Shown in pieces: positions 34,322 through 42,351 of a stretch of 64,000 nucleotides of DNA. This DNA comes from an uncultured Candidatus Saccharibacteria bacterium (GTDB lineage: Bacteria > Patescibacteriota > Saccharimonadia > CAILAD01 > BJGX01), in contig CAZSVP010000003.1 in NCBI GenBank assembly GCA_964610335.1, positions 77,531 through 141,530 on the forward strand, read 5' to 3'. Numbering within the stretch: the first letter of the stretch is position 1; each line of letters begins with the position of its first letter. The position numbers and the translations under genes are program-made. The notes below the pieces were generated by a model. The model worked only from the letters and a program-made list of their open reading frames with translations. It did not search any database and was not told the DNA's origin.

Positions 34322-34368
34322 TTTTATATCTCAAGCATTAGAGGTATAATGGTTTGCAATGAGGACAT

Positions 34369-35955
34369 ATGGCAGATTCATCTGAAACAGGACAACCACA
34401 AACACCTGATAAAGCGTCTACCTATGAGGATATTTTAGGTAAGATTCAACGCGGTGAATCATCTGGTGATGATTTGGCTGCGGCTATTCTAAGTGATTTA
34501 AGTGGTGAGTCCAATATGGATGAGCCTAACAATCCATATGTCGATGAGTTGATTGGTGTGCTAGAAGGTCAAACTGGCGATAACCCACTTCGAGATACTT
34601 TGCTGGATGTACTTCAAAAACTAGCTCAGGGCGGTGAAAAAAACCCATTAAAACCAACAGCCAAGGAGTCAGCTGCTAAAGCAGCAGCCGAGTTAGCAGA
34701 CGAGGACCATGGTAAGAAGTTAATACCAACCTTGGGTGAGATAAGGGCTGACTTTGAAGAGCAGACCGGTTTGCGATTACCGCCTGGCGAAAGGCCGTTG
34801 GACCAAAAACTCGAAGAAGCACGACTTGAAGTAGCACTTATGAGATCAAAACGCGAGGGGCGTCATGTGCTACTGCGCGGGAGTGAGGCTCGAGTAGCCA
34901 AGGCAGAACGCGCATATTGGTTGGTATCGAATGCTCGTGTACAGTGGATATTAACGGAGCGACTAATGGCCGAAGGTGTAGCAGATCAGGATGGTAACAT
35001 AGACGCAGCTAAGGCCTCAGAAATACTTAATTCAGCTGAGTTTCAGACTCAACTGATCCAAGCACAATTAGATGAAGAAGTTAAACTATCGCAGTCAATT
35101 CTAGATGTTCGCACTGGCAAAGCTGGCGGTAATATTGTTAGCCGCTGGGGGCGACGCATGGCTGAACGCTATGCCAAACATCCTAAGGCTAGATCTGGCA
35201 TTGCAGCTGGATTGCTTGGCGTGGGTGCTACAGCTGTTGCCACTGGTGGTGTTTCGTTAGTTGCGGCTGGTGCACTCTATGCTGGGCAGCGAATGCTGCG
35301 TAAGGTGGTAGGCGAACAATATGAATCGAAGGTAAAAGCCCCCAAGTTGGCCAAGAAAACTGAGCAAAAACGATCTGAGTTCCTAACTGGCGACAAAGCG
35401 CGGGCTTTTGGAGATGTGTTATTTAAGGCTTTTACAAAAAAGCTTGATAGTGAGCAAAAGAAAGCCGCCAGGTCTAAACCAGGTAGTATGGCAGAGTTAG
35501 CAAACCAAGTTACCCTTAGGGGCGCTGATCTACCAGAGCTCAAGATACTATTAGCATCTACGTATGAGATGATCAAGAACATTCATGAAAGCGATCCTGG
35601 TAACGAACAAATCCCCGAAAACTTGCCTCAAGCAGAACGGCGTCGGATTGAACTAATCCAAAGGCTGCGAGATACAGGTGTGACCTCCTTAGAAGAGGCT
35701 TTTAGTCAGTTAAGACCCGAGATGATAGCTGATGTTCTGACACTTTCGCTTGATCGTCGGTTGACAGAGACCCGCACACTAGCTCAACAAAGAGCACCTT
35801 GGTTTGCCAAAGGGTCAGATTGGCTAAGGCGTAGTACACGGGCTACCACTGCACGAGTTTGGCGCTCGTTGACTACACTTGATAACGAGGGTGAGGTTGA
35901 AGAGGAATCAGGCTTACCTGGAGGTTTGCCAGCTACACCTCCACCTACTATATAA
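34369..35955 (+). CDS. Hypothetical protein (acidic N-terminal region, central TM, basic/coiled C-region)
   Basis: 528-aa ORF with no recognisable motif. Confidence 0.5.
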   Translation: MADSSETGQPQTPDKASTYEDILGKIQRGESSGDDLAAAILSDLSGESNMDEPNNPYVDELIGVLEGQTGDNPLRDTLLDVLQKLAQGGEKNPLKPTAKESAAKAAAELADEDHGKKLIPTLGEIRADFEEQTGLRLPPGERPLDQKLEEARLEVALMRSKREGRHVLLRGSEARVAKAERAYWLVSNARVQWILTERLMAEGVADQDGNIDAAKASEILNSAEFQTQLIQAQLDEEVKLSQSILDVRTGKAGGNIVSRWGRRMAERYAKHPKARSGIAAGLLGVGATAVATGGVSLVAAGALYAGQRMLRKVVGEQYESKVKAPKLAKKTEQKRSEFLTGDKARAFGDVLFKAFTKKLDSEQKKAARSKPGSMAELANQVTLRGADLPELKILLASTYEMIKNIHESDPGNEQIPENLPQAERRRIELIQRLRDTGVTSLEEAFSQLRPEMIADVLTLSLDRRLTETRTLAQQRAPWFAKGSDWLRRSTRATTARVWRSLTTLDNEGEVEEESGLPGGLPATPPPTI

Positions 35956-35978
35956 CTAACAAAACATAGGAGTTTACC

Positions 35979-36323
35979 ATGAATGACACCCAGATAATCA
36001 TATTAAAAGAACTAGGTATAACTGATGCTAGTCCTGAGAAGCAAGCCGATATACTAGTCAAGATGGCTGAAGTTATTCAAAACCGCGTGGCAGTTAGGCT
36101 TACTGATATACTTACTGATCAGGAGCTGCAGCGCCTGGATGAACTGTCAGACAAAGACCCCGCTGAAATGTTTGCTTGGCTACAGCAAAATGTGCCTACC
36201 TATAATCTACTAGTTCAGGAAGAGACTATTCGGCTTCGCAACGAGCTAAGTCGAGGTTCTGTTGATATTAAGCAAGCTATATCTGAATATATTGATTCAA
36301 AGGCGCAAGCTCAGAGTACTTGA
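35979..36323 (+). CDS. Hypothetical small protein
   Basis: RBS 'ataggag'; 114 aa. Confidence 0.5.
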   Translation: MNDTQIIILKELGITDASPEKQADILVKMAEVIQNRVAVRLTDILTDQELQRLDELSDKDPAEMFAWLQQNVPTYNLLVQEETIRLRNELSRGSVDIKQAISEYIDSKAQAQST

Positions 36324-36348
36324 CAAAATAGTAATTATGTAGTATACT
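36320..36348 (+). promoter_or_regulatory. Strong sigma70-like promoter TTGACA-N17-TATACT reading into the GC-rich island
   Basis: TTGACA at 36320-36325 overlaps the stop of the upstream gene; TATACT at 36343-36348. Confidence 0.5.
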
Positions 36349-36580
36349 GGCCGCGATGATTTGCTATAGAGTAAATCAGTCCTTTTAAAACCGTTTCTGT
36401 AGCAATATGTTCTGGAGGGTCGCTTTTTGTGATACCTCTTTTTTGTTTGGTATTTGCCGATCTAAGGCAGAACCCTGCGTGCTATTGTGTCATCTGCCGC
36501 CCAGTTGATGCATGGCCGCAGGACTCTGCCTTAGTAAATCGTCTGCTCCCGCTCGGGAGCCAAAACCCGAGGAGGGAGCA

Positions 36581-37819
36581 ATGTCCATATTCGGTAATCG
36601 CGATGTGCCAGTGCCTGAAGTTGATGGCATTGGTATGCCTCTAGGTGACAGCAACCGTCACGCCCCACCACGGGACGAGGACGAGCTTGCGGCTCATCTG
36701 GCAGCAGCATTGCGAGCCAAGCAGACCAGCCGACCGTCAGCCCCGCCCGGGGATCCAAAGAACCCCGAGGAGGGAGACATGACGAACCTGGGAGAGATGC
36801 TCGACGACAAGAGTCGAGCCGCCCTCGATCAAGCACGTGCCAGTGCCGAGGCAGCCGTGGACTTCTCGCTCAGCTATGAAGAGTGGGTGCCATGGCTGAA
36901 CGAGCACGGCATTCCGGTACCGAGTTCGGGAGACCCCAACCCGGACGAAGACTGGAAGCAGGTCCGAGCCTTGGTGGGACTCTTCCCGAGCGCGACGCGC
37001 AAGGCGAAGGCTCACTACCGCGAAGTACAGGCTAGTATCGAGAAGCTTCACAGCTACCTTGAGCAGGCCTGGTTGTCAGCCTGCGAACTCTTGGCGCAAG
37101 CCGGAGCGCAGTACGCCAACACCCAACCACCAGAACCAACCAACCCGACAGCCCCTCCGGGGGGCACACCAACCCCTGAGGAGGGCGTCATGAAGACCAG
37201 CGAGCAGATCAAAGTCGAGGCAGCCGAGCTGATGAAGGACTGGGCCAAACCCGAGCTGACCAGCGGTCTCTACCGCTGGGATGCCACGGTCTGGGACACC
37301 AGCCGGATCGGCGATGGCAAGATCGGCTACATTGGCCTCCTCTCGGGGAAGCTGATGTTCAGCCAGATCACGTACCTCGAGGAGTGCGTCGAGCGCGGAC
37401 GGGACCATCCCTTCGACAGCAACGACGTGCTCGACCAGCTCCACGTGCTGGTCCGCGAGTGGCTGAGCCTCGACCCGGCCTTCGTGGCCTTGGACGAGGC
37501 AGATGCCAAGCGCGAGGTGAGTCGGGCGGTCTATCGCGTGTTGCGCGGTGAGATCGCCTTCGACCAGGTGGCTTACGTGCCACCGCTCACCCCTGAGGAC
37601 CGGGCGGCAGCTCTGGCGGCGTCCATCCAGGCCGCAACCAAGCCCGAGGCCAAGAAGGTCAAGGGTCGTCGGCGCGGACGCGACAAGGGTGACAAGCCCA
37701 AGTCCGCCTCGGCGTTGCCCTCACCTCCGGTCACCCCTGTGGTGGTCGGCAGCCCGACCCTCGGTCGGTACGGCATCGCCGCCGCCACCGCCCTCGGTGA
37801 GGTCTGGCAGTCGCGCTAG
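36581..37819 (+). CDS. Island gene A: Pro/Ala-rich hypothetical protein (~412 aa) with a basic C-terminus
   Basis: Very high GC; GGAGGGAG SD 5 nt upstream of the ATG at 36581; two further in-frame SD+ATG units inside. Confidence 0.6.
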   Translation: MSIFGNRDVPVPEVDGIGMPLGDSNRHAPPRDEDELAAHLAAALRAKQTSRPSAPPGDPKNPEEGDMTNLGEMLDDKSRAALDQARASAEAAVDFSLSYEEWVPWLNEHGIPVPSSGDPNPDEDWKQVRALVGLFPSATRKAKAHYREVQASIEKLHSYLEQAWLSACELLAQAGAQYANTQPPEPTNPTAPPGGTPTPEEGVMKTSEQIKVEAAELMKDWAKPELTSGLYRWDATVWDTSRIGDGKIGYIGLLSGKLMFSQITYLEECVERGRDHPFDSNDVLDQLHVLVREWLSLDPAFVALDEADAKREVSRAVYRVLRGEIAFDQVAYVPPLTPEDRAAALAASIQAATKPEAKKVKGRRRGRDKGDKPKSASALPSPPVTPVVVGSPTLGRYGIAAATALGEVWQSR

Positions 37820-37867
37820 TTCGTGGCTGTCAGTGGTTGGTCTCGTTTGCTACAGGAGCGCGAGAGT

Positions 37868-37895
37868 GGTGTGGGGGTCTTCGGACCCCCACACC
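37868..37895 (+). terminator. Perfect 12-bp GC hairpin with a UUCG loop after gene A (no U-tract)
   Basis: 'ggtgtgggggtc-ttcg-gacccccacacc'. Confidence 0.45.
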
Positions 37896-37988
37896 TCAAC
37901 CACACTACTAGGATTAGTATTCCGATTGTGTCGAGTAGACAATTCAACATGCTTGAGACAGTCGGAAACCTGCTCCTGTAGCAACTTC

Positions 37989-38021
37989 AAACCCGTACCT
38001 CGGTGCAAACCGGGGGAATAC
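37989..38021 (+). repeat. Copy 1 of a 33-nt conserved leader element 'aaacccgtacctcggtgcaaaccgggggaatac' (plus upstream 'gctcctgta') preceding gene B
   Basis: Identical to 38519-38551. Confidence 0.8.
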
Positions 38022-38034
38022 CAAGGAGGCCCAC

Positions 38035-38361
38035 ATGGGACTCGCAGATGACCTGGCCGCACGCAAAGCAGCGAAGCAGGCTCCGCCGCCGCCCGCCAAG
38101 ACCACCATCGATGAGGTGGACAAGGCGATCGATGTGGCGCTCGCGCCCATCGTCGACGACTTCACCAAGGTCGTCACGGAGGCCCTCGCGCTCTTCGACA
38201 AGGAGACCGCGAGCGATGACTTCCTGGAGCGACTTCTGGTCGCGTTGGGAGACACCGATCTGCCCACCGGTGACGGCGTGCTCGAGGCCAAGGTGGCCGC
38301 TGCGGTCAACCGCGGCGTCGCCAACGCCATCGCCGCCGTGGTCGCCAACGCGACCAAGTGA
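38035..38361 (+). CDS. Island gene B: small acidic helical protein (108 aa)
   Basis: AGGAGG RBS; ATG at 38035. Confidence 0.6.
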   Translation: MGLADDLAARKAAKQAPPPPAKTTIDEVDKAIDVALAPIVDDFTKVVTEALALFDKETASDDFLERLLVALGDTDLPTGDGVLEAKVAAAVNRGVANAIAAVVANATK

Positions 38362-38373
38362 GCAGTTGCTCGG

Positions 38374-38404
38374 CCACCGGCGTACTCTCGTAGTACGTCG
38401 GTGG
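38374..38404 (+). terminator. 13-bp stem hairpin (one G.U) with a CUCG loop after gene B
   Basis: 'ccaccggcgtact-ctcg-agtacgtcggtgg'. Confidence 0.4.
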
Positions 38405-38518
38405 CATGAGCCACCACACATTCACATTAGATGTATAGAATCGTCTTGCTGATATTTATCTTCATGGCAATGGAGCATTACTTCGGTAGTGATCAGCAAC
38501 CGCGCTCCTGTACAAACC

Positions 38519-38551
38519 AAACCCGTACCTCGGTGCAAACCGGGGGAATAC
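38519..38551 (+). repeat. Copy 2 of the 33-nt leader element preceding gene C
   Basis: Identical to 37989-38021. Confidence 0.8.
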
Positions 38552-38566
38552 TAGTTGGAGACTGTT

Positions 38567-39067
38567 ATGGCAGCACCAATGGCCGCGGCCGCAGCTCAAG
38601 GGTTGTTGGCTGCATTTGGCGGCGCTAACCCGCCGCCGCCCGGGGGCAATCCACCCGGCGGTGGAATGCAACCACGAAATGCTGGCATCGTCGCTGGCAT
38701 CGTCGCTTCGGTACTCGCGATCCTGACCTACATCGGGTTGGGACTGTGGGACGCTGTCGGCTGGGGCAAGGGTCTGATCGGTTTCGTGCTCGTTGGTGTT
38801 CTCGCCTTCGGGGTCACGTTTCTCATCTGCATCCGTCCACCTCAGCCGCGACAGCCCGCCGCTCCGGCACCAGCACCAGCGGCCACCAACCACACCTTCA
38901 TCGCCATCATGGTGGGGTGTGGTACGACGATCGTTGCTTCGATCGTTGCGGTGGTGGCTGTCAGCCGGTTCAGCGATGACGGTGCCTTCAGGATGTTGGC
39001 CTTCCTGGCCCCATACCTGATAGCCGGAGTCATCGCCACTCGGGCACTGTTCAAGCGCGGCAGCTAG
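38567..39067 (+). CDS. Island gene C: 4-TM membrane protein with a Pro/Gly-rich N-terminus
   Basis: ATG at 38567 (the ORF-track start was TTG); four hydrophobic helices. Confidence 0.55.
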   Translation: MAAPMAAAAAQGLLAAFGGANPPPPGGNPPGGGMQPRNAGIVAGIVASVLAILTYIGLGLWDAVGWGKGLIGFVLVGVLAFGVTFLICIRPPQPRQPAAPAPAPAATNHTFIAIMVGCGTTIVASIVAVVAVSRFSDDGAFRMLAFLAPYLIAGVIATRALFKRGS

Positions 39068-39100
39068 GCCGACCATGAAGGGGAACCTCCATGGTCGGCC
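39067..39100 (+). terminator. 11-bp perfect hairpin after gene C
   Basis: 'ggccgaccatg-aaggggaacctc-catggtcggcc'. Confidence 0.4.
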
Positions 39101-39298
39101 GCGAGGCCCTGGGCTGAGTTTCTCGATTTGCGTCGAGAGACCACCCAGGTGCCCTCGCACCTCAACCTACATATTAGGCTTATGCTTTATAAGAGACCGT
39201 AACAAGTGTAATCTTAATATGTGGGCTGAATCTTGGAGAGAAAACCAAGCTTAAGCACACAACCGCACCCATACATCAACCATAGAGGAGGTGGTCCT

Positions 39299-40726
39299 AT
39301 GACACGTAGTCACAGGATCTTCGCCGCCTGTGCGATTGTCTTCACCATGCTCATTGCATTGGTGGGGGCGGTTGCCATCGGCACATCGAGTGGTCAGACC
39401 GCCTCAAGCGGCAGCACGACCACGACATCACTCGAGCCAGTCCCTGGCTCGGTCACCACCACGCCAGCGCCAACCGACAACGTGCCGGCGGCCACGCCCG
39501 AGGAGCGCAAACCCACGGTCACGGCTGAGCAGTGTCACGATCGGATCGGTGCCTCGGAAGAGAAGGACCGCGAGCTCCAGGAGCAAGGCATCACCGCCGA
39601 ACAGTGTGGTCTGCTGCTGGTGGAGCTCTGTCAGAAGGTCGACTTCGATGGCGTTCGCGCCCTCGGAGAGTCCGACCCATCAGGCAAGTGCGCCGCCGTG
39701 ATGGCCGGTGTGAGTACGACGCAGAACACCGCGCCGACCAGCACCGCGCCTGGAGCAACAGCTCCATCTGGCACAACGCCGGGCTCAACGGCACCGCCAA
39801 CCACGGCTACCCCAACGCCTCGTCAACCCGATGTGGTGGATCTCATGATCTATCTGCAGAAGGTCAGCATGGCCGAAGGGCACGTCCAAGGAGTCGGTGT
39901 CACCTGTGAGGCCAATTGCGTTCTGCGCGACGGTATCACGGCTGATACCCCCGAGGGCATGTTCGCCCAGCTCATGAGCAAGGGTCTCGTCTCGCCAGTC
40001 TTTCTCGATGATGCAGCCCGCACCATCGCGTTCCAGACCGGGCAGGAGTACACCGACACTCGAGAGGTGGGCGACGCCGCCAAGGCCGGCAGTGACACAC
40101 TGATCGTGCTGAACTGGATCAAGGACCCGAGCACCCCAACCATGTTGGAGCGCGGGATCTTGCCAGCCGGCACGACGCTGTACAACACCGTCGTACAAGA
40201 CGGCAAGGTGGTGCAGTTCAGCTACACCACCAACCGGGATCGGGTCTACCTCAAGATCTGGAAGGGCGACACCTTCCTGATGTGGTTCGACAGCTGCGGG
40301 AACAGGACGAGCGATCGTCCGACGCCTGGAGTGCCCGAGACCCCAACGCCGCCACCGCACGACGACGAGCCACCGACCACGACGACACCACCACCGACCG
40401 GTGGGCCGACCCCGACCACGACACCACCAGCGTGTCCGCCAGGCACGATCTGGAACCCGGTCACGAAGAAGTGTGGGAAGTTGGATACCCATCCAGTGGG
40501 ACCCAACAGCCCTGTTCCTACCCAGGTGCAGGGCCCAGGGCCAACCCATCCGGCAGGGCCACCCAACACGGCGATCGAGCATCCGAACCCCACGACTGGT
40601 TGCAATCCAACCTGTCCGGGGGCAACGACGCCCACCACAAGGGCGGTGACACCCACGGTGCCGCCGATCGTCACCAGCACCACGTACCAGCCGCCTCCGA
40701 CGCCCACCACCATGGGCGGGCCGTAG
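39299..40726 (+). CDS. Island gene D: secreted or anchored Thr/Pro-rich protein (signal-anchor 'MTRSHRIFAACAIVFTMLIALVGAVAIG', PT-rich C-terminus)
   Basis: GGAGGTGG RBS; ATG at 39299. Confidence 0.6.
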   Translation: MTRSHRIFAACAIVFTMLIALVGAVAIGTSSGQTASSGSTTTTSLEPVPGSVTTTPAPTDNVPAATPEERKPTVTAEQCHDRIGASEEKDRELQEQGITAEQCGLLLVELCQKVDFDGVRALGESDPSGKCAAVMAGVSTTQNTAPTSTAPGATAPSGTTPGSTAPPTTATPTPRQPDVVDLMIYLQKVSMAEGHVQGVGVTCEANCVLRDGITADTPEGMFAQLMSKGLVSPVFLDDAARTIAFQTGQEYTDTREVGDAAKAGSDTLIVLNWIKDPSTPTMLERGILPAGTTLYNTVVQDGKVVQFSYTTNRDRVYLKIWKGDTFLMWFDSCGNRTSDRPTPGVPETPTPPPHDDEPPTTTTPPPTGGPTPTTTPPACPPGTIWNPVTKKCGKLDTHPVGPNSPVPTQVQGPGPTHPAGPPNTAIEHPNPTTGCNPTCPGATTPTTRAVTPTVPPIVTSTTYQPPPTPTTMGGP

Positions 40727-40811
40727 TCGGCACTGACAACTCTGGCCTCGAGTGAGGACCGTCGCCAGAGTGAGAAGTCCCAGTCCTCCATGATGTATGG
40801 GTGCAATTGCT

Positions 40812-40839
40812 GCCCTGGGGAGCCAAAACTCCCCAGGGC
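40812..40839 (+). terminator. 11-bp GC hairpin with a CCAAAA loop after gene D, near the island's right boundary
   Basis: 'gccctggggag-ccaaaa-ctccccagggc'. Confidence 0.4.
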
Positions 40840-40890
40840 TAGCACCCACACCCTAAGCTGAAGACAGTGCAGCTACTAGCTACCTTGTCT

Positions 40891-40908
40891 TCAGGATAGG
40901 TATCCTGA
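40891..40908. promoter_or_regulatory. Palindrome 'tcaggata-gg-tatcctga' (8-bp arms), a putative regulator binding site
   Basis: Located 21 bp upstream of the -35 box of the LPXTG-gene promoter. Confidence 0.35.
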
Positions 40909-40928
40909 AAAGAAAACCATAACAAATA

Positions 40929-40957
40929 TTGACACCAATACTAAATTATGATATTAT
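40929..40957 (+). promoter_or_regulatory. Near-consensus promoter TTGACA-N17-TATTAT for the LPXTG gene
   Basis: Motifs at 40929-40934 and 40952-40957. Confidence 0.55.
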
Positions 40958-41055
40958 AACCGCTAATTGAGAGGCGGAGCTCATTTACAGCCAAATACGA
41001 TGCATTTACTAATTGAGACTTGTCAAACATTAAACCTGACAAGGAAGGAAACTAT

Positions 41056-42351
41056 ATGAAAAAGAAATCAACTTTTCGTAAAGTTCTCGGCATTGTATTG
41101 GCAACAGTAGCTTTAGTGGTAATGCCACTGGCTGCAGCTGCTGATTGGAGCCCTGAACGACCGATCAAAGAATATTATCCAGGAGTACCTGGTTTTGATC
41201 ATGTGACATTTAACTCGTTTGTTAAAACCGCCAATTATGGCGACGAACGACTTTTCTATACTGCCAAGGATGCGGCTAATACCAATTCTGGCGGTTTCGA
41301 TGACAGCATGCAGGTGCATGCTGGTCAAGAGATACTTATGCGCACCTATATACATAACGGTGCCGACTCAAGTCTCAATGCAGGTGGCACGGGCATAGCT
41401 CGTAACACCAAGGTAAAGGTAATGCTGCCAAGTGGCTATGACAAAGCCTTGCGCTCTGTTAGCTACATAAGTGCTAGCAATGCACAGCCAGGTACTGTAG
41501 CGGCTTCTGTTGATCTAAAGGGTGACAACCCATTTGGTCTGCAGTATGTTGCAGGATCTGCTATGGCTTATAGTAACCAAGCTCCCAATGGCTTCAAACT
41601 CAACGATAGTATCGTGGGTGATGGCGCCTTGGTCGGTAATGTTGCTCCAGATGGTAATGTACCAGGCTGCTTCGAGTATGGTGTGGTTGTAACCATGAAA
41701 GTGAAAGTTACAGCTGCCAACTTGAGCATTCAAAAGCAAGTTGGTATCCCAGGCTCTGGTCAATGGAAAGAACAAGTACAAGTCGGCAAAGGTGATACTG
41801 TAAGCTGGGGAATCCACTACGAAAACACCGGTGACCGCGTCATGCACAAAGAAGTAGTAACTGACAAACTACCCCCTTACCACGAAGTGGTACCAGGTAG
41901 TGTCAAGCTCTACGTGCCCAATGCTCCAGAAGGCGCTCAACTCAATGACACTTCGTTGTTTAACGAAGGTGTAATGGTTGGTGACTACGCTCCAGGAGCT
42001 GGTGGTAACATACGTTACCAAACTCGGGTCAAACAAGATGTACCTGCAAACTTGCTAATGCGTAATGTGGCTTGTATCGGATCAGATGAGACTCAGACTG
42101 ACATCTGTGATGATGCTACTACTATTACCCCTCCAACACCTCCACCTACACCGGAGTGTTTGCCAGGCATACCAGTAGGTGATAGCCGCTGTAACCCTGT
42201 AACGCCTCCCCCTACAGGTGGTCCGTTGCCAGCAACTGGTGTGGAAAGTGGCTTGGCTGCAAGTCTAGGCATGACTGCCCTTACAACCGGTGGTTATATG
42301 CTACGACGTAGCCGTAAGGACCTCAAAAAGGCCCTCACCAAAGTAAAATAA
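41056..42351 (+). CDS. LPXTG-anchored cell-surface protein (sortase substrate)
   Basis: Signal peptide 'MKKKSTFRKVLGIVLATVALVVMPLAAAADW'; C-terminal 'LPATG' plus hydrophobic stretch plus 'RRSRKD' sorting signal. Confidence 0.8.
   Translation: MKKKSTFRKVLGIVLATVALVVMPLAAAADWSPERPIKEYYPGVPGFDHVTFNSFVKTANYGDERLFYTAKDAANTNSGGFDDSMQVHAGQEILMRTYIHNGADSSLNAGGTGIARNTKVKVMLPSGYDKALRSVSYISASNAQPGTVAASVDLKGDNPFGLQYVAGSAMAYSNQAPNGFKLNDSIVGDGALVGNVAPDGNVPGCFEYGVVVTMKVKVTAANLSIQKQVGIPGSGQWKEQVQVGKGDTVSWGIHYENTGDRVMHKEVVTDKLPPYHEVVPGSVKLYVPNAPEGAQLNDTSLFNEGVMVGDYAPGAGGNIRYQTRVKQDVPANLLMRNVACIGSDETQTDICDDATTITPPTPPPTPECLPGIPVGDSRCNPVTPPPTGGPLPATGVESGLAASLGMTALTTGGYMLRRSRKDLKKALTKVK

Follow-up and report, generated by a model that had tools for sequence, protein, structure and literature searches.

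Background

Internal in-frame initiation of translation, by which one gene gives rise to nested protein isoforms, is established in bacteria for infB (IF2 alpha, beta and gamma), clpB and cheA. Polymorphic toxin/immunity-type loci combine a conserved N-terminal region with exchangeable C-terminal modules and are followed by small variable genes, and in RNA thermometers and translational riboregulators the Shine-Dalgarno (SD) sequence is sequestered by hairpins in the leader. Internal initiation has been mapped genome-wide by retapamulin ribosome profiling (bioRxiv 10.1101/520783), and the production of Cas11b by internal in-frame translation within cas8b has been reported for archaeal type I-B CRISPR-Cas (PMC11899642). 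The present analysis concerns a 64-kilobase (kb) stretch of DNA from an uncultured Candidatus Saccharibacteria bacterium (contig CAZSVP010000003.1), hereafter the window, in which a gene termed gene A carries a unit made up of an SD sequence and a start codon in three copies, one at its own start (unit 1) and two inside its reading frame (units 2 and 3). Units 2 and 3 are very probably in-frame copies of the translation-initiation region of the gene family itself, rather than a peptide motif whose codons imitate an SD. The chances that they initiate translation in vivo, which would yield nested products of 412, 346 and 209 amino acids (aa), are judged to be evenly balanced.

Three in-frame SD and start codon units in gene A

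Gene A and its three units are placed in the window as follows:

36581..37819, + strand: gene A, 412 aa, comprising three modules with Pro-rich linkers, as delimited from the open reading frame (ORF) and its homologues
36545..36583, + strand: unit 1, GCTCCCGCTCGGGAGCC-AAAA-CCC-GAGGAGGG-AGCA-ATG, which serves gene A as ribosome-binding region and start codon
36740..36781, + strand: unit 2, GCCCCGCCCGGGG-ATCCAAAGAA-CCCC-GAGGAGGG-AGAC-ATG, encoding APPGDPKNPEEGDM; candidate internal start of a 346 aa product
37151..37192, + strand: unit 3, GCCCCTCCGGGGGG-CACACCAA-CCCCT-GAGGAGGG-CGTC-ATG, encoding APPGGTPTPEEGVM; candidate internal start of a 209 aa product

Exact matches to GAGGAGGGNNNNATG occur three times in the window, all on the + strand (36569-36583, 36767-36781 and 37178-37192), and GAGGAGGG followed by 4 nucleotides (nt) and ATG likewise occurs three times in the 64 kb, in each case in gene A and in frame. 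The unit ATG codons (36581, 36779 and 37190; offsets 0, +198 and +609) share the frame of the ORF at 36512..37819 and, if used, would give proteins of 412, 346 and 209 aa, so that the pattern search confirmed what the original prediction had stated of their number, offsets and product lengths. When both strands of the window were searched for GAGGAGGG, no occurrence was found outside the three unit copies, which thus form the whole set, and the translated-style pattern CCNGARGARGGNNNNATG recovered the same three sites only (expected 0.00). The number of GAGGAGGGNNNNATG matches expected by chance is 0.06 as opposed to the three observed, and at least three matches were obtained in 0/100 dinucleotide-preserving shuffles; the claim that the repeat is improbable by chance is upheld. 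Chance is excluded as the source of the three in-frame matches. The hexamer AGGAGG is found ten times inside ORFs of the window; an in-frame ATG comes 5-7 nt later in all four of the island cases and in none of the six in host genes.

Other parts of the original prediction require amendment. The spacing between SD and ATG is equal in the three units as proposed, but GAGGAGGG lies 4 nt and not 5 nt before the ATG, the latter value being obtained only when counted from the GGAGG core. Similarly, the repeat is present but extends over ~40 nt rather than the SD and ATG alone. The full element consists of a C-run, a G-run, an A/C-rich spacer, CCC-GAGGAGGGA, 2-7 nt and ATG or GTG; the C-run/G-run and A/C-rich spacer 5' of CCC-GAGGAGGG are common to all three units, and units 2 and 3 form a 52-nt direct repeat with 73% identity. 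Finally, units 2 and 3 do lie within the gene as was claimed for all three, whereas unit 1 is upstream of the start used in the gene calls of the homologues. Gene A begins at the unit 1 ATG (MSIFGN...) in every one of these calls, so that the peptide 'PEEGAM' encoded by unit 1 is probably never translated and only units 2 and 3 are intraprotein. As at described internal starts, AGGAGG stands at a working distance (5 nt) before an in-frame ATG in each unit. No slippery frameshift sequence was seen after the units on reading by eye, and a consensus scan returned no promoters inside gene A.

The surroundings of the individual units were compared between the window and homologous loci, which are referred to by their locus numbers. 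Unit 1 lies within an 86-nt run that is invariant in three close alleles. The L006 version has a spacer shorter by 2 nt, which disrupts the 'PEEG' frame, and an in-frame upstream start is absent. Unit 2 is kept as cccGAGGAGGGagatATG in L006, and the version in L001 is GAGGGGGG. Unit 3 falls within a 65-nt run (37148-37212) that is likewise invariant in the three close alleles, in which 13% of gene A columns vary. Around the unit 3 ATG, the window and L039 are identical at 35/40 nt upstream and 15/40 nt downstream, and their module 3 proteins are ~45% identical.

Nucleotide-level conservation of the element

The sample available for comparison comprises approximately eight alleles of one rare family, related by descent, and the comparative statistics below are consistent and suggestive rather than independent tests. 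The ~40-nt element is found 5' of the authentic start in four diverged homologues, with the following sequences:

Window: GCTCCCGCTCGGGAGCCAAAACCCGAGGAGGGAGCAATG
L006: GTTCCCGCTCGGGAACCAAACCCGAGGAGGGAAATG
L042: GCCCCTCCCGGGGCACTACCCGAGGAGGGAAGCAATG
L041: GCCCCTTCGGGGACCCAAACCCCCCAGGAGGGAAAGATG

In L006 and L042 this element is out of frame with the ATG and there is no in-frame start up to the nearest stop, and it is thus non-coding there; if translated, it would give PRRE or PRREA. Internal copies occur at module joints in all members with sequence in this region, namely L001, L007, L006 (two copies), L039, L040, L041, L042 and L164/L165, and the modules which flank them are only 32-49% identical or unrelated. 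All ten internal copies, from eight alleles, keep the core AGG(A/G)GG, with the start codon 4 or 7 nt after the octamer. Eight lineages have ATG after the units and three have GTG (L041, L006 and L164/L165), with no other codons observed.

Codon usage in the units departs from that of the family. The Glu codon is GAG in 17/17 cases (family background ~71%), the Gly codon is GGA in 8/9 (~20%) and the first Pro of PPG is CCT in 5/7 (~15%), with the same codon being used at only 41-60% of identical residues between deep alleles. The substitutions observed are of particular kinds. A change of E to G, seen twice, converts AGGAGG to AGGGGG, with which pairing to CCUCC is still possible via G.U, and a change of E to Q alters only the base before the SD core. 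Other changes in the unit peptide include G to E and PKN to QTT. The conservative change of E to D, which would break the SD, was not found among the available homologues. In unit 2 of L007 the spacer peptide DPKN has become DQTT through compensating indels, with the RNA remaining A/C-rich, and in unit 3 of L006 the nucleotides of the C-run are unchanged but fall in a different reading frame (DPPSGD).

As had been proposed, homologues were inspected for retention of the peptide together with loss of the SD through synonymous change, and no such case was found among the few available. The preference of the original prediction for a real SD and start over a peptide motif is favoured by the start sites that are out of frame, the fixed codons and the changes that spare the core. 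Conservation of the SD and start codon beyond the needs of the protein is evident, in a small and non-independent sample. The pattern typical of a peptide motif, with conserved amino acids and free synonymous sites, was not observed in these homologues, nor is every copy translated in the same frame, as seen for unit 1 of L006 and L042 and the C-run of L006 unit 3. Selection thus looks to have acted on the nucleotides rather than on the 'PEEG.M' peptide.

Start-site strength and predicted structure

Assuming a canonical anti-SD, the SD:anti-SD duplexes of units 1, 2 and 3 have predicted energies of -12.3, -12.3 and -12.6 kcal/mol, and are stronger than those of all 28 host-gene starts examined, the best of which reaches -10.2 kcal/mol. 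Local fold z scores at the three units are -4.0, -3.4 and -1.8, and across 13 units pairing potential is present in 82-94% of cells. An SD-sequestering hairpin was considered as a conserved structure and rejected, with no covariation beyond shuffled or slid controls among the 13 units. A hairpin plus GAGGAGGG DNA pattern, with 120 unrelated high-GC matches, served as a null set, in which metagenome sites of the form 'CCCCTCCNGGGG...GAGGAGGG' were followed by ATG/GTG at 2-7 nt in 26/109 cases (24%).

Modules of gene A and their mosaic distribution

The three modules of gene A are delimited as follows:

36581..36778, + strand: module 1, residues 1-66, conserved N-terminal region and linker, in which the differences in L006 are mostly synonymous
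36779..37189, + strand: module 2, residues 67-203, core LSYEEWVPWL...SATRKAKA and linker
37190..37819, + strand: module 3, residues 204-412, predicted folded alpha/beta domain, basic Pro-rich tail and C-terminal helix

The guanine plus cytosine content (GC) of gene A by codon position is 0.68/0.49/0.76. The AlphaFold2 (AF2) model of the whole protein is weak, with a predicted local distance difference test (pLDDT) score of 55 and low confidence at residues 1-32, 46-74 and 182-203; units 2 and 3 coincide with the ends of the latter two low-confidence regions, which represent linkers predicted to be disordered. When module 3 was modelled alone from the internal Met, pLDDT values of 75-93 were obtained over residues 1-130, with the first helix starting from residue 4. 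No solved structure matched the module 3 fold (no fold match with E below 1), and genes A to D of the island have no matches in Pfam, PHROGs or NCBIfam.

Homologues of gene A include the proteins P0001-P0003 and P0006-P0008, with P0004 and P0005 aligning from the module 3 Met. Three to four relatives were recovered per word-indexed protein search and five by an exhaustive representative search. No gene A relatives were found in the GTDB representative genomes, where a MurD-anchored scan yielded only Saccharibacteria and other members of the candidate phyla radiation (best MurD 48% identical), those Saccharibacteria being distant and lacking the island, and the JGI metagenomes held no module 3 relatives. 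Public gene calls place the starts of P0004, P0005 and P0008 at an internal unit ATG/GTG (L039 86, L040 27, L164 111 and L165 333). In L165 a probably spurious upstream gene, which ends in a GTGA overlap, is called in another frame.

The modules are arranged differently among these homologues. The order in the window is N1, unit, module 2a, unit and module 3a, and in L006 it is N1, unit, an unrelated middle module, a unit-like site and module 3b. In P0006 and P0007 (L041 and L042) a different N-terminal domain is fused to module 2a, followed by a unit and module 3b. At the DNA level, homology between the window and L006 is 94% up to the end of MurD, is then lost, amounts to 83% over 36433-36781 and stops at the unit 2 ATG, returning only past gene C. 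The gene A product of the window is 92% identical to that of L001 and 39% identical to that of L006, and MurD is 94-95% identical among the three. Gene A thereby presents a conserved N-terminal part and C-terminal modules that vary between close strains. Otherwise unrelated third modules have a C-terminal helix motif in common, A(A/F)..(I/A)(I/L).(E/D)(V/T)(F/W), which occurs in gene A (37760-37816), P0003, P0006, P0007 and P0008 and may represent a common interaction or export signal.

Proposed explanation and alternatives

In the explanation proposed here, the three units are copies of one ~40-nt initiation region characteristic of this Saccharibacteria gene family. Unit 1 acts as the ordinary ribosome-binding site of gene A, and units 2 and 3 represent the same element inside the frame, at the end of a disordered Pro-rich linker and just before the next module. 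One mRNA would then yield the 412 aa full protein, a 346 aa protein (modules 2 and 3) and a 209 aa protein (module 3), and gene A would in effect be an operon of cistrons no longer separated by stop codons. Since each module opens with the same element, the units would also serve as joints for module exchange between strains. The intact persistence of the units in fast-changing linkers across deep lineages argues for a function. The broadest form of this explanation, in which gene A would be an 'operon inside an ORF' whose initiation region is both ribosome entry and swap joint, generating nested isoforms as well as strain-level combinatorial diversity, is considered unlikely. Its setting would be an old syntenic island of four genes that stands apart from the rest of the genome by its high GC at third codon positions (GC3; 0.7-0.85 as compared to ~0.4-0.5 in flanking genes), by strong SDs in an otherwise SD-poor genome and by a conserved, structured and undescribed leader RNA of ~225 nt.

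Several points weigh against initiation at units 2 and 3. Because the alleles share descent, their codon statistics cannot be treated as independent. In L006, GAGGAGG occurs without a start codon in the acidic linker (10547 and 10623), which indicates that E-rich linkers give rise to SD-like strings easily. The anti-SD was assumed to be the canonical CCUCC, as the 3' end of the 16S rRNA of this organism lies outside the window, and most host genes in the window have a weak SD or none. In the predicted fold of each unit (-45..+15; ~-25 kcal/mol) the SD is paired with the upstream C-run, and an SD buried in this manner would be inhibited in initiation unless the hairpin is opened, as elongating ribosomes would be expected to do. 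The proteins P0004, P0005 and P0008 were considered as stand-alone module 3 cistrons and dropped; they all sit at the beginning of a contig, their frames remain open as far as its edge, and they thus show only that gene finders score the units as starts.

Recombination or gene conversion at the joints could, furthermore, keep the units alike without a role in translation. On such an account, which is the main rival and is held less likely than internal initiation, the units would be fusion relics or recombination joints, that is, the start regions of once separate cistrons retained as homology blocks for swapping or gene conversion. It is in line with the mosaic nature of the family, where module 2a is preceded by more than one kind of N-terminal domain and module 3a alternates with 3b, with the loss of homology between the window and L006 at the unit 2 ATG and its resumption only past gene C, with the identical 34-nt leaders of genes B and C and the repeated leader of L040 (see below), such cassettes being typical of the island, and with the predicted burial of the SD in a hairpin. 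However, relics in fast-evolving linkers should decay, and the core, spacing and ATG/GTG persist between lineages that are only ~67-70% DNA-identical in their core genes. The substitutions seen are also those which an SD tolerates, and a homology block of 20-40 nt is short for efficient homologous recombination. A past as fusion joints is in any case compatible with internal initiation, and the two are not mutually exclusive.

The location of units 2 and 3 within a translated ORF, at linker-domain boundaries, would also suit a linker peptide with a function of its own, such as a site of processing or docking, with the motif (A)PPG..(K/T).PEEG.(M/V) and codons that are merely SD-like. The motif is recognisable in P0003, P0006 and P0007, the exchange of M for V is conservative, and Pro and Gly codons are complementary by nature, and would thus provide the hairpin for free. 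This is nevertheless improbable, given that the same element is untranslated and out of frame at the authentic starts of L006 and L042, that the C-run of L006 unit 3 is in a different frame, that synonymous sites are fixed (GAG 17/17, GGA 8/9), and that E to G (seen twice), G to E and PKN to QTT are radical changes, with E to D never seen. More improbable still is a role of the units not as starts, but as an RNA pause or structure signal which slows ribosomes at linker ends, for co-translational folding or targeting, or as a regulated switch. All three units lie at module boundaries and have stable predicted local folds, and the pairing potential is high (82-94% of cells over 13 units), yet covariation does not exceed that of shuffled or slid controls. 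A pause signal would leave unexplained both the constant ATG/GTG at 2-7 nt, which follows only 24% of the unrelated hairpin-plus-GAGGAGGG sites, and the identical element at the authentic start, and SD-induced pausing in vivo is itself disputed. A linker peptide and a pause signal both fit the data less well than either internal initiation or relic joints.

Promoter and 5' leader of gene A

Upstream of unit 1, two further features were delimited:

36320..36348, + strand: promoter-like site TTGACA-17-TATACT upstream of gene A, matching 11/12 consensus positions
36355..36580, + strand: 5' leader of ~225 nt, with its start inferred from the promoter, ending in unit 1

Across five homologous loci, among them the distant L041 and L042, neither the promoter hexamers nor their context vary, and the leader is kept in blocks across the same number of loci, again including these two. 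The leader has a predicted folding energy of -101.6 kcal/mol (z = -7.4). A hairpin within it (36462-36534) retains its pairing in five loci, with compensatory changes in 10/29 pairs and an invariant loop, TGCCGCCCA. A search against Rfam 15 gave nothing meaningful at E <= 1 in 35800-41200, which includes the units and the leader, and at gathering thresholds only one tRNA was found in the whole window. The structured and conserved leader, in view of the lack of an Rfam match, is thus a candidate for an undescribed cis-regulatory RNA. In the region 36413-36644, a second SD-like sequence, GGAGGG (~36415), is present in the leader, and a GTG at 36429, 9 nt later, opens a 71-codon ORF (MIPLFCLVF...), which overlaps the gene A start out of frame and may encode a leader peptide. 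In L006 the equivalent GTG opens an upstream ORF of nine codons only (MILPAFLFV*).

Island setting

Gene A (36581-37819) is the first of four + strand genes that make up the island, the others being gene B (38035-38361), gene C (38567-39067) and gene D (39299-40726):

38035..38361, + strand: gene B, 108 aa, with a strong SD (AAGGAGG); 45% identical in L001 and absent from L006
38567..39067, + strand: gene C, 166 aa, hydrophobic, probably a membrane protein; homologue in L040, unrecognisable in L001 and L006
39299..40726, + strand: gene D, 475 aa, with an N-terminal hydrophobic segment, Thr/Pro-rich stretches and a strong SD (AGAGGAGGTGG); 95% identical in L001 and L006

The island is bordered at one end by MurD, a 528-aa ORF and a DUF5663 gene, and at the opposite end by a putative surface protein and prfA. 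Its GC is ~0.62 as compared to ~0.46 around it, and its GC3 is 0.68-0.86 as compared to 0.36-0.45 in the flanking genes of the window. In the island of L042, a distant member of the Saccharibacteria, GC3 is 0.69-0.85 as compared to 0.44-0.53 in the flanks (regions of anomalous GC3: window 36500-40800, L042 8000-12060 and L006 10000-14300). As GC3 is also raised in this distant syntenic lineage, the anomaly is old and maintained rather than the result of recent transfer, and might be caused by biased gene conversion at a hotspot of recombination. Very strong SDs precede island genes A, B and D. Several + strand host genes (e.g. 26309, 27892, 34369, 53994 and 54994) carry a TATAAT-like box immediately 5' of the ATG, which suggests that their mRNAs are leaderless.

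The island occurs at the same place in independent assemblies of the close relatives L001-L003, L006 and L007, and also in a distant Saccharibacteria metagenome-assembled genome (L042/L043, GCA_016191105.1), whose core genes have a DNA identity of ~67-70%. An assembly artefact is ruled out by the recurrence of the island and its units in independent assemblies, and the island is likewise no recent insertion. Samples carrying the locus include SRR24199744/46/48, SRR24114285 and SRR23867504. When the window (34350-39098) was compared with L006 and L001, a mosaic was apparent between the strains, with flanks of ~94% DNA identity, while replacement, or an identity of only ~38%, is seen for the 528-aa ORF, the DUF5663 gene, gene A modules 2 and 3, and genes B and C. 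Between the strains, identity is 95-100% for gene D and for the surface-protein gene downstream. Directly after MurD, an unannotated ORF of ~440-528 aa is found in the window (34322-35955), L001, L006 and L007, and a MurL-type epimerase gene (PF26299/PF26298) follows MurD in L041 (1840-3150) and L042 (4632-5936).

A phage or mobile origin has no support, the locus being chromosomal and syntenic in several Saccharibacteria. No PHROGs match was found, viral contigs had no match to gene D or the unit pattern, and phage records had no DNA match; the analogy with phage scaffold or assembly genes that had been drawn for gene A is accordingly not sustained. There is no recognisable toxin domain and immunity gene in genes A to D according to Pfam, PHROGs, NCBIfam and fold searches, PADLOC not having been searched.

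Several repeats are present in the non-coding parts of the island. A 34-nt leader repeat, CAAACCCGTACCTCGGTGCAAACCGGGGGAATAC, precedes gene B (37988-38021, + strand) and an identical copy precedes gene C (38518-38551); it is predicted to form a small hairpin (CCUCGGU/ACCGGGG). A different repeated leader (..GCTGCAGAAGCTGCCGGCGCACCCCACAGGAGGA..) stands before the small genes of L040 and L039. Together, these repeated leaders suggest that stereotyped cassettes of a leader plus an ORF are the rule in this island. The A-B intergenic region is bracketed by a perfect 13-nt inverted repeat, TTGCTACAGGAGC ... GCTCCTGTAGCAA (37847-37859 / 37972-37984), and CTGTAGCAA-like copies occur in the gene A leader (36392-36405) and before gene C (38504-38517). 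A further repeat, CACCTCAACC.ACA.TA.TAGG.TTA, follows the hairpins 3' of genes A and C (37886-37916 and 39152-39182).

Significance and comparison with described systems

If the internal sites work, gene A would be a clean natural case of one bacterial gene giving rise to three nested proteins via copies of its own ribosome-binding region, and would fall in the Saccharibacteria, in which gene expression is almost unstudied and where most genes of the window lack an SD. Annotation would also be affected, as gene finders already call these sites as starts on truncated contigs (P0004, P0005 and P0008). If the sites are idle, gene A would still be a well-documented example of initiation regions preserved as fossils where the modules of a fused, mosaic gene meet. 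The units mark points of module exchange between nearly identical strains, and the locus is thus a candidate for strain-specific, possibly host-interaction, functions.

The units resemble SD-sequestering hairpins in that the SD of each has a predicted pairing partner in a C-rich, anti-SD-like arm (CCCCUCC), but differ in the lack of covariation support or an Rfam match and in the position of two of the three copies inside an ORF. As in polymorphic toxin loci, the leader and N-terminal module of gene A are conserved and the downstream modules are replaced between ~94% identical strains, with the small genes B and C varying along with the gene A modules. Unlike such loci, no toxin, immunity or trafficking domain was detected by Pfam, NCBIfam, PHROGs or fold search, and the joints of gene A consist of initiation-region sequence and not of a conserved peptide such as VENN. 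The similarity to Cas11b, as far as this system is described in the cited report, lies in a small functional protein which originates from an internal in-frame start and corresponds to a C-terminal domain (PMC11899642). The organism and protein family are different, there is no sequence relation, and Cas11b has experimental support whereas the case for gene A is sequence-based.

The closest parallel is provided by the nested-isoform genes of IF2, ClpB and CheA. As in these genes, an in-frame ATG/GTG with an SD at a working distance lies within the ORF of gene A, and the predicted shorter products would share its C-terminus; as in IF2, there would be two internal sites and hence three products. 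Gene A differs in that its candidate sites coincide with the linker-module joints of a strain-variable mosaic, and in that each internal site is a copy of the ~40-nt start region of the gene itself.

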